Source of the DNA: Escherichia coli
Lineage (GTDB): Bacteria > Pseudomonadota > Gammaproteobacteria > Enterobacterales > Enterobacteriaceae
DNA length: 64,000 nt
NCBI RefSeq assembly: GCF_003334315.1
Contig: NZ_QOWR01000015.1
Direction: 5' to 3' (one strand)
The stretch's first letter is position 1; each line of letters opens with the position of its first letter. Position numbers and translations under genes: made by a program. Shown piece after piece: positions 63,353-64,000 of this stretch. Under the pieces are notes generated by a model. It ran no database searches. It was not told where the DNA came from and worked only from the letters and a program-made list of their open reading frames with translations.

Positions 63353-63547
63353 TCAGTGTTTATGTTCGGCGGTTAATTGATTAAATAAAGTGTCGAGTTT
63401 TGGATCGCCAATATAGTTATTAATCAATATCAGTGGTTTATCCGTCACACGTTTCACGCGCCCTTCCAGACTGGCATGAGTAACGACGATATCCGCATCC
63501 GCAGGCACGTTTTCTATGGCGTAATGTTTTACTTCAATTGCCAGCCC
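63353..63547 (-). pseudogene. cmtA: 3'-terminal fragment (64 codons) of cmtA, a mannitol-family PTS EIICB gene, truncated by IS1
   Basis: Minus-strand frame reads GLAIEVKHYAIENVPADADIVVTHASLEGRVKRVTDKPLILINNYIGDPKLDTLFNQLTAEHKH then stop at 63353-63355; resembles the C-terminus of a mannitol-type EIIB domain; the frame is cut at 63547/63548 by the IS1 terminus. Confidence 0.6.
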
Positions 63548-64000
63548 GGTAATGACTCCAACTTATTGATAGTGTTTTATGTTCAGATAATGCCCGATGA
63601 CTTTGTCATGCAGCTCCACCGATTTTGAGAACGACAGCGACTTCCGTCCCAGCCGTGCCAGGTGCTGCCTCAGATTCAGGTTATGCCGCTCAATTCGCTG
63701 CGTATATCGCTTGCTGATTACGTGCAGCTTTCCCTTCAGGCGGGATTCATACAGCGGCCAGCCATCCGTCATCCATATCACCACGTCAAAGGGTGACAGC
63801 AGGCTCATAAGACGCCCCAGCGTCGCCATAGTGCGTTCACCGAATACGTGCGCAACAACCGTCTTCCGGAGACTGTCATACGCGTAAAACAGCCAGCGCT
63901 GGCGCGATTTAGCCCCGACATAGCCCCACTGTTCGTCCATTTCCGCGCAGACGATGACGTCACTGCCCGGCTGTATGCGCGAGGTTACCGACTGCGGCCT
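63548..64000 (-). mobile_element. IS1 insertion sequence (partial; continues beyond window end)
   Basis: Terminal inverted repeat GGTAATGACTCCAACTTATTGATAGTG begins at 63548; internal sequence matches IS1 including the insB coding region. Confidence 0.9.
63563..64000 (-). CDS. insB: IS1 transposase InsB (C-terminal part; 5' end lies beyond the window)
   Basis: Minus-strand ORF ending ...[23 protein letters not shown], stop at 63563-63565 inside the IS1 inverted repeat; the ORF track lists it from an internal Met at 63940. Confidence 0.85.

Follow-up and report, generated by a model that had tools for sequence, protein, structure and literature searches.

The question raised by this locus is whether an IS1 element has interrupted cmtA, which codes for a mannitol-type PTS EIICB protein immediately upstream of yggP-yggF-yggD-yggC, and what such an interruption would mean for these genes. 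The window, that is, the whole stretch of 64,000 nucleotides that was analysed, is an E. coli chromosome segment running from yqeC/ygfK to cmtA, and its counterpart in MG1655 is 3,014,119-3,077,665. Over this interval MG1655 is 99.2% identical to the window with 498 mismatches, so the window does not come from a K-12 laboratory strain. The natural isolate W5-6 differs from it by 10 mismatches and one gap over the initial 43 kb and shows no mismatch between 56275 and 63547. In addition, dozens of complete genomes, many of them of commensal E. coli, match the 24.5 kb at 39001-63547 with 100% identity. Collinearity with ordinary non-K-12 E. coli ends at 63547, where the IS1 is the sole structural difference that we see, and no further IS element besides the one at 63548 was found within the window. 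This lack of other IS elements and the full identity of the 24.5 kb to commensal genomes led us to reject Shigella as the source.

The right end of IS1 (GGTAATGACTCC...) begins exactly at 63548. We took as the mark of an IS1 terminus an inverted repeat of about 23 bp, GGTRATG...CCAACTTAYTGAT, located at the element boundary; the right terminus GGTAATGACTCCAACTTATTGAT(AGTG...) has a single match in the window, at this very position, with 0 matches expected by chance. The right inverted repeat (IRR) matches exactly, and the exact match extends inwards to 54 bases. From 63548 onwards, all 453 bases that the window still contains agree at 100% identity with annotated copies of the IS1A family, such as that in strain 33-6; this identity covers the right-hand part of the element, the left 315 bp (IRL, insA and the frameshift site) falling outside the window. 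On the minus strand, a stop-free frame that is open to the window edge encodes the C-terminal 145 residues of InsB and ends at a TAA at 63563-63565. This fragment matches the NCBIfam model NF033558 (IS1 family transposase) at profile positions 82-199 of 199, with an E-value of 3.8e-40 and a score of 138 bits, the cut-off being 100. Therefore, both hallmarks of the IS1 family that are visible in the window, namely, the terminal repeat and the IS1-type DDE transposase frame insB', are present. The A6C motif at which a -1 frameshift joins insA to the next frame to give InsAB' lies, as we presume from canonical IS1, a few bases past 64000, and in other genomes the annotation of identical IS1 copies includes a programmed frameshift. 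The preliminary description of this stretch had placed an IS1 terminus at 63548 and had insB reading in the same direction as the downstream operon; the unique exact terminal repeat and the 453 identical bases bear out the former, and the shared minus strand the latter. As a side observation, the TAA of insB is in frame with the remnant of cmtA and stands 15 nt ahead of the junction, so that read-through of this stop would join InsB to the CmtA tail, which is most likely a coincidence.

Table 1. Features around the IS1 junction in the window, and IS1 copies mapped in cmtA or yggP of other E. coli genomes
Feature	Position	Strand	Basis or remark
IS1 (IS1A-type), right-hand 453 of 768 bp	63548..64000	minus	IRR match, identity, NCBIfam, open frame
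IRR (right inverted repeat) of IS1	63548-63570		exact match
Insertion junction, between cmtA nt 1194 and 1195	63547..63548		~ MG1655 3,077,665/6
cmtA 3' remnant, nt 1195-1389, codons 399-462 + stop	63353..63547	minus	100% identity to W5-6
yggP, zinc-binding dehydrogenase	62061..63338	minus	ORF; W5-6/K-12 annotation; NCBIfam MDR-type dehydrogenase
yggF (glpX), class II fructose-1,6-bisphosphatase, GlpX family	61099..62064	minus	TIGR00330, E 5e-177; W5-6/K-12 annotation
yggD/fumE, MtlR-family, annotated fumarase E	60568..61077	minus	NF007455, E 3e-100; W5-6/K-12 annotation
yggC, P-loop nucleoside/nucleotide kinase family	59858..60571	minus	NF006742, E 3e-150; W5-6/K-12 annotation
IS1 in 2018-11-3CC	cmtA nt 382-389		target duplication 8 bp
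IS1 in F11	cmtA nt 467-475		target duplication 9 bp
IS1 in LR-48	cmtA nt 1221-1229		target duplication 9 bp
IS1 in Q65	cmtA nt 1227-1235		target duplication 9 bp
IS1 in 64EVA	cmtA nt 1364-1371		target duplication 8 bp
IS1 in PI12	yggP		target duplication 9 bp
IS1 in ET490	yggP		target duplication 9 bp
IS1 in 33-6	from cmtA into cmtB		adjacent deletion
IS1 in ECZP248	within cmtA		adjacent deletion

On the other side of the junction, the minus strand of 63353-63547 reads 64 codons and a stop (GLAIEVKHY...TAEHKH*), and these 195 nt are base for base the end of the 1,389-nt cmtA of W5-6 (462 codons). In the intact gene GCCAGCCC is followed by CGCTTTTTCC, whereas in the window it is followed by GGTAATGACTCC. 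The frame had been described as only the C-terminal end of a mannitol-type EIICB protein, with an alignment of the flank to an uninterrupted cmtA proposed as a check; this alignment, when run against W5-6, was without a single difference and identified the frame as the last 64 cmtA codons, and all coordinates in that description proved to be right. In intact CmtA, PTS_EIIC spans residues 20-277 and PTS_IIB residues 372-454 according to Pfam, and an alignment to the MtlA IIB structure 1VKR locates the phospho-cysteine loop CDAGMGSS (Cys377) upstream of the break. Thus, what remains of the EIIB domain is its C-terminal two-thirds, which lack the phospho-cysteine loop; the remnant is recognised as CmtA by its identity and its place upstream of yggP, while complete EIIC and EIIB domains with the cysteine are missing from it, and residues 399-462 give a weak match to the NCBIfam model of mannitol IICBA. 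Since it lacks the phospho-cysteine, the remnant by itself cannot be a functional protein. Its sole possible in-frame start is a GTG at 63508, where we recognised no Shine-Dalgarno sequence or plausible ribosome-binding site, and therefore this frame of 51 to 64 codons should not be called or annotated as a small gene. As the break splits EIIB and parts the remnant from Cys377, CmtA would be inactivated in this strain, and the appropriate label for cmtA is a pseudogene disrupted by IS1.

The insertion had also been suspected to be strain-specific, and the comparisons agree with this. In BLAST searches with junction queries of 1,101 bp and 160 bp, the exact IS1-cmtA junction was present in 0 of the 5,426 complete RefSeq E. 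coli genomes, apparent full-coverage matches being two-piece matches to IS1 at other sites, and an exact scan of JGI metagenome contigs with a 47-mer spanning the junction returned 0 matches. In close relatives whose sequence matches the flanking 24.5 kb with 100% identity, cmtA is uninterrupted. The 51-aa ORF of the remnant is on record elsewhere, mostly in frameshift-ridden long-read assemblies of other lineages or beside other IS insertions, and none of the 10 places listed for it has the junction. Our literature search found nothing relevant on cmtA together with IS1. From the two-piece matches we mapped IS1 copies in cmtA or yggP of nine genomes (Table 1), all nine copies being 768 bp long. 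Seven of them are simple insertions with an 8-9-bp target duplication, and the other two are accompanied by adjacent deletions: in 33-6, IS1 links cmtA nt 376 to mid-cmtB with a 544-bp deletion, and in ECZP248, whose left junction is common with that of 2018-11-3CC, cmtA nt 390-716 are lost. IS1 therefore strikes the cmt-ygg operon repeatedly and independently, and the site in the window is one more, private to its strain. We also considered a hot spot for IS1 at this locus and rejected it, since about 21-27 genomes carry IS1 within about 1.3 kb of the site versus a rough expectation of ~18 genomes per 1.4-kb target, a figure that assumes some 12 chromosomal IS1 places per genome, ignores kinship and is to be about halved for the single orientation that the search could join; this is no convincing excess. 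Other elements were seen here as well: ET490 has an additional IS30-family ISAeca1 in cmtA, and one further E. coli genome has an IS4-like transposase gene at the same place (locus L006). Separately, in W5-6, the closest relative that we examined, cmtB is 445 nt long as opposed to 444 nt in K-12, owing to one additional A in an A-run close to the 3' end, and it carries a frameshift annotation; a CmtB of 138 aa is annotated in other genomes. Decay of the cmt system in this lineage may have preceded the arrival of IS1.

The remaining observations concern the rest of the window. In the mscS-fbaA intergenic region (55810-56030) there is a REP/BIME-type palindromic element at 55871-55995, which is 87% similar to a copy 3' of yqeB, just beyond the window, is flanked by two near-duplicate hairpin motifs (ttgcttttggcgaaaaaa..cccgcagagcggg) and contains an Rfam match to ES036 (CssrF) at 55919-55961. 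Rfam matches at the gathering threshold are naRNA4 (CssrE) at 28276-28353, 6S RNA (ssrS) at 41863-42046, and the SibC antitoxin RNA opposite ibsC at 42695-42845, all of which are expected in this region of E. coli. The dsbC gene (23993-24703, minus strand) is intact in the window, but the annotation of the near-identical W5-6 gives it a frameshift. This may be the one gap that separates the two sequences over 43 kb, in which case it could be a sequencing error or a private mutation of W5-6.

As to the genes downstream, yggP is the first intact gene 3' of the insertion and yggC the last of the cluster. The ATG of yggP at 63338 follows the cmtA stop by 14 bases, a spacer that is the same in W5-6, and yggP, yggF, yggD/fumE and yggC overlap or nearly abut each other; this arrangement indicates that they form one operon with cmtA. 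A lacZ assay showed activation of the cmtB promoter by cAMP-CRP, and yggF is among the listed CRP targets (PMC3105977), which fits a single cmtBA-yggPFDC transcription unit. In this strain the promoter region on the cmtB side is now parted from yggPFDC by IS1. For K-12, a sigma-54 binding site has been reported that lies within yggP at a distance of 744 bp upstream of yggF (PMC4591121), and its sequence CTGGCGGCAATATTGCA has an exact match on the minus strand at 62802-62818, again inside yggP and downstream of IS1; this site could be an independent input to yggF-yggC despite the insertion. A stock scan of both strands of 62900-64000 revealed no sigma-70-like promoter, and a relaxed scan across the junction revealed no promoter formed by the IS1 end; it returned two weak native sites alone, both inside the cmtA remnant.

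We consider it very probable that a standard IS1 transposed into the 3' part of cmtA as a simple insertion, with loss of CmtA and a polar effect on yggPFDC. On this account, in a single natural lineage of non-K-12 E. coli, an IS1A-type element would have entered cmtA between nt 1194 and 1195, with its transposase frame pointing along the cmtBA-yggPFDC string. A complete 768-bp IS1 would then occupy 63548-64315 with an 8-9-bp target duplication and with cmtA nt 1-1203 on its far side; the element would end in ...CATCACC, the reverse complement of GGTGATG..., and past IS1 one would read the duplication TGCCAGCCC (or its 8-bp version) and then CGCTTTTTCCAGGCG... / CGCTTTTTCCAGGCGTTTACGG, that is, cmtA from nt 1203 downwards. 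The choice of a simple insertion is made by analogy with the seven of nine IS1 copies at the locus that are of this kind and have the short duplications. The two that are not, those in 33-6 and ECZP248, show what else an IS1 end can stand for, namely, a rearrangement in which an adjacent deletion removed upstream cmtA/cmtB or sequence beyond, or in which recombination between two IS1 copies produced an inversion or a large deletion. The proteins predicted for read-through from CmtA residues 1-401 into IRL after a simple insertion, with either the 9-bp or the 8-bp duplication, are both absent from the record, as a rearrangement would have it, but a source genome outside that collection would leave these look-ups empty in any case, and they neither support nor refute the insertion. 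Given also that the remaining window is perfectly collinear with its relatives, we regard a rearrangement as unlikely. Still less credible is that the junction is an assembly artefact in which a unique contig was misjoined to a copy of the IS1 repeat. The window does end inside a repeat, and the junction was in no other genome or metagenome searched; however, the flank gives way to IS1 at precisely the first base of its terminal repeat, which is the signature of transposition, a misjoin through the repeat would still require a real flank-to-IS1 junction in the reads, and in finished genomes one often finds IS1 inserted independently at this locus. We thus hold an artefact to be highly improbable.

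Two opposite effects of the simple insertion on yggPFDC have to be compared. IS1 insertions are strongly polar in both orientations, largely via Rho, as established by the classical gal and lac work, and the promoter that IS1 carries in IRL is a weak one, subject to autorepression by InsA. Most transcription that starts at the CRP-activated cmtB promoter would stop in IS1, because of Rho-dependent polarity together with the loss of translation over the last 195 nt of cmtA, and yggPFDC would be deprived of the greater part of its usual input and left with weak read-through from IS1 or with internal signals. A polar reduction of yggPFDC expression would accordingly be the likeliest effect. If the insertion instead activated yggPFDC, expression would be constitutive and CRP-independent, driven by read-through from the IRL promoter via insA-insB or by a hybrid promoter at the junction. 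The co-orientation of insB and yggP is compatible with this, and so is the evidence from an evolution study that an IS1 terminus can furnish a half promoter, but in the same study the activity of that half promoter hinged on the 20 bp next to it, and no reporter expression was obtained from 600 bp of IS1 alone, the terminus tested being the other one, not IRR (PMC5526668). Here, no -10 element is correctly spaced relative to the IS1 end, and at the junction even relaxed thresholds yield no promoter-like site. As the junction is without a promoter, we infer that a block is more likely than activation, which, also in view of the weak, InsA-repressed promoter and the polarity of IS1 in either orientation, we judge to be quite improbable. 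It is a very remote prospect that the insertion is adaptive, uncoupling yggP-yggF-fumE-yggC from the CRP-dependent cmtB promoter in favour of low constitutive read-through from IS1, so that recurrence would reflect selection; the one argument for it is the recurrence of IS1 insertions. Were it true, the levels of a second class II fructose-1,6-bisphosphatase and of fumarase E would be altered, and the recurrent IS1 copies of the same orientation in cmtA/yggP of unrelated strains would mean selection on the operon. The polar knockout by simple insertion that we prefer is probably near-neutral, since the cmt system is cryptic, and repeated IS hits in a cryptic cmt-ygg operon fit weak selection on it. 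In practice, this strain may express yggPFDC differently from reference strains, and the junction is a private allele that could serve to type or trace the lineage.

Compared with what is known, K-12 has cmtBA (b2933/b2934) followed by yggP-yggF-fumE-yggC in the same order and with the same spacing as in the window, but cmtA is intact in K-12 and in most E. coli and interrupted here. The nine IS1 copies mapped in other E. coli are the same element in the same orientation and the same operon. None of these is at nt 1194/1195, although those of LR-48 and Q65 are 26-32 bp away and likewise in the EIIB-coding part. We therefore see an ordinary strain-specific knockout by the common IS1 and no new kind of element: what has inserted is IS1 itself, what it disrupts is the well-known cryptic cmtA, and the visible part departs from neither. 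The visible 453 bp are no different from the IS1A/IS1B isoforms of E. coli, and the novelty is the insertion site alone.
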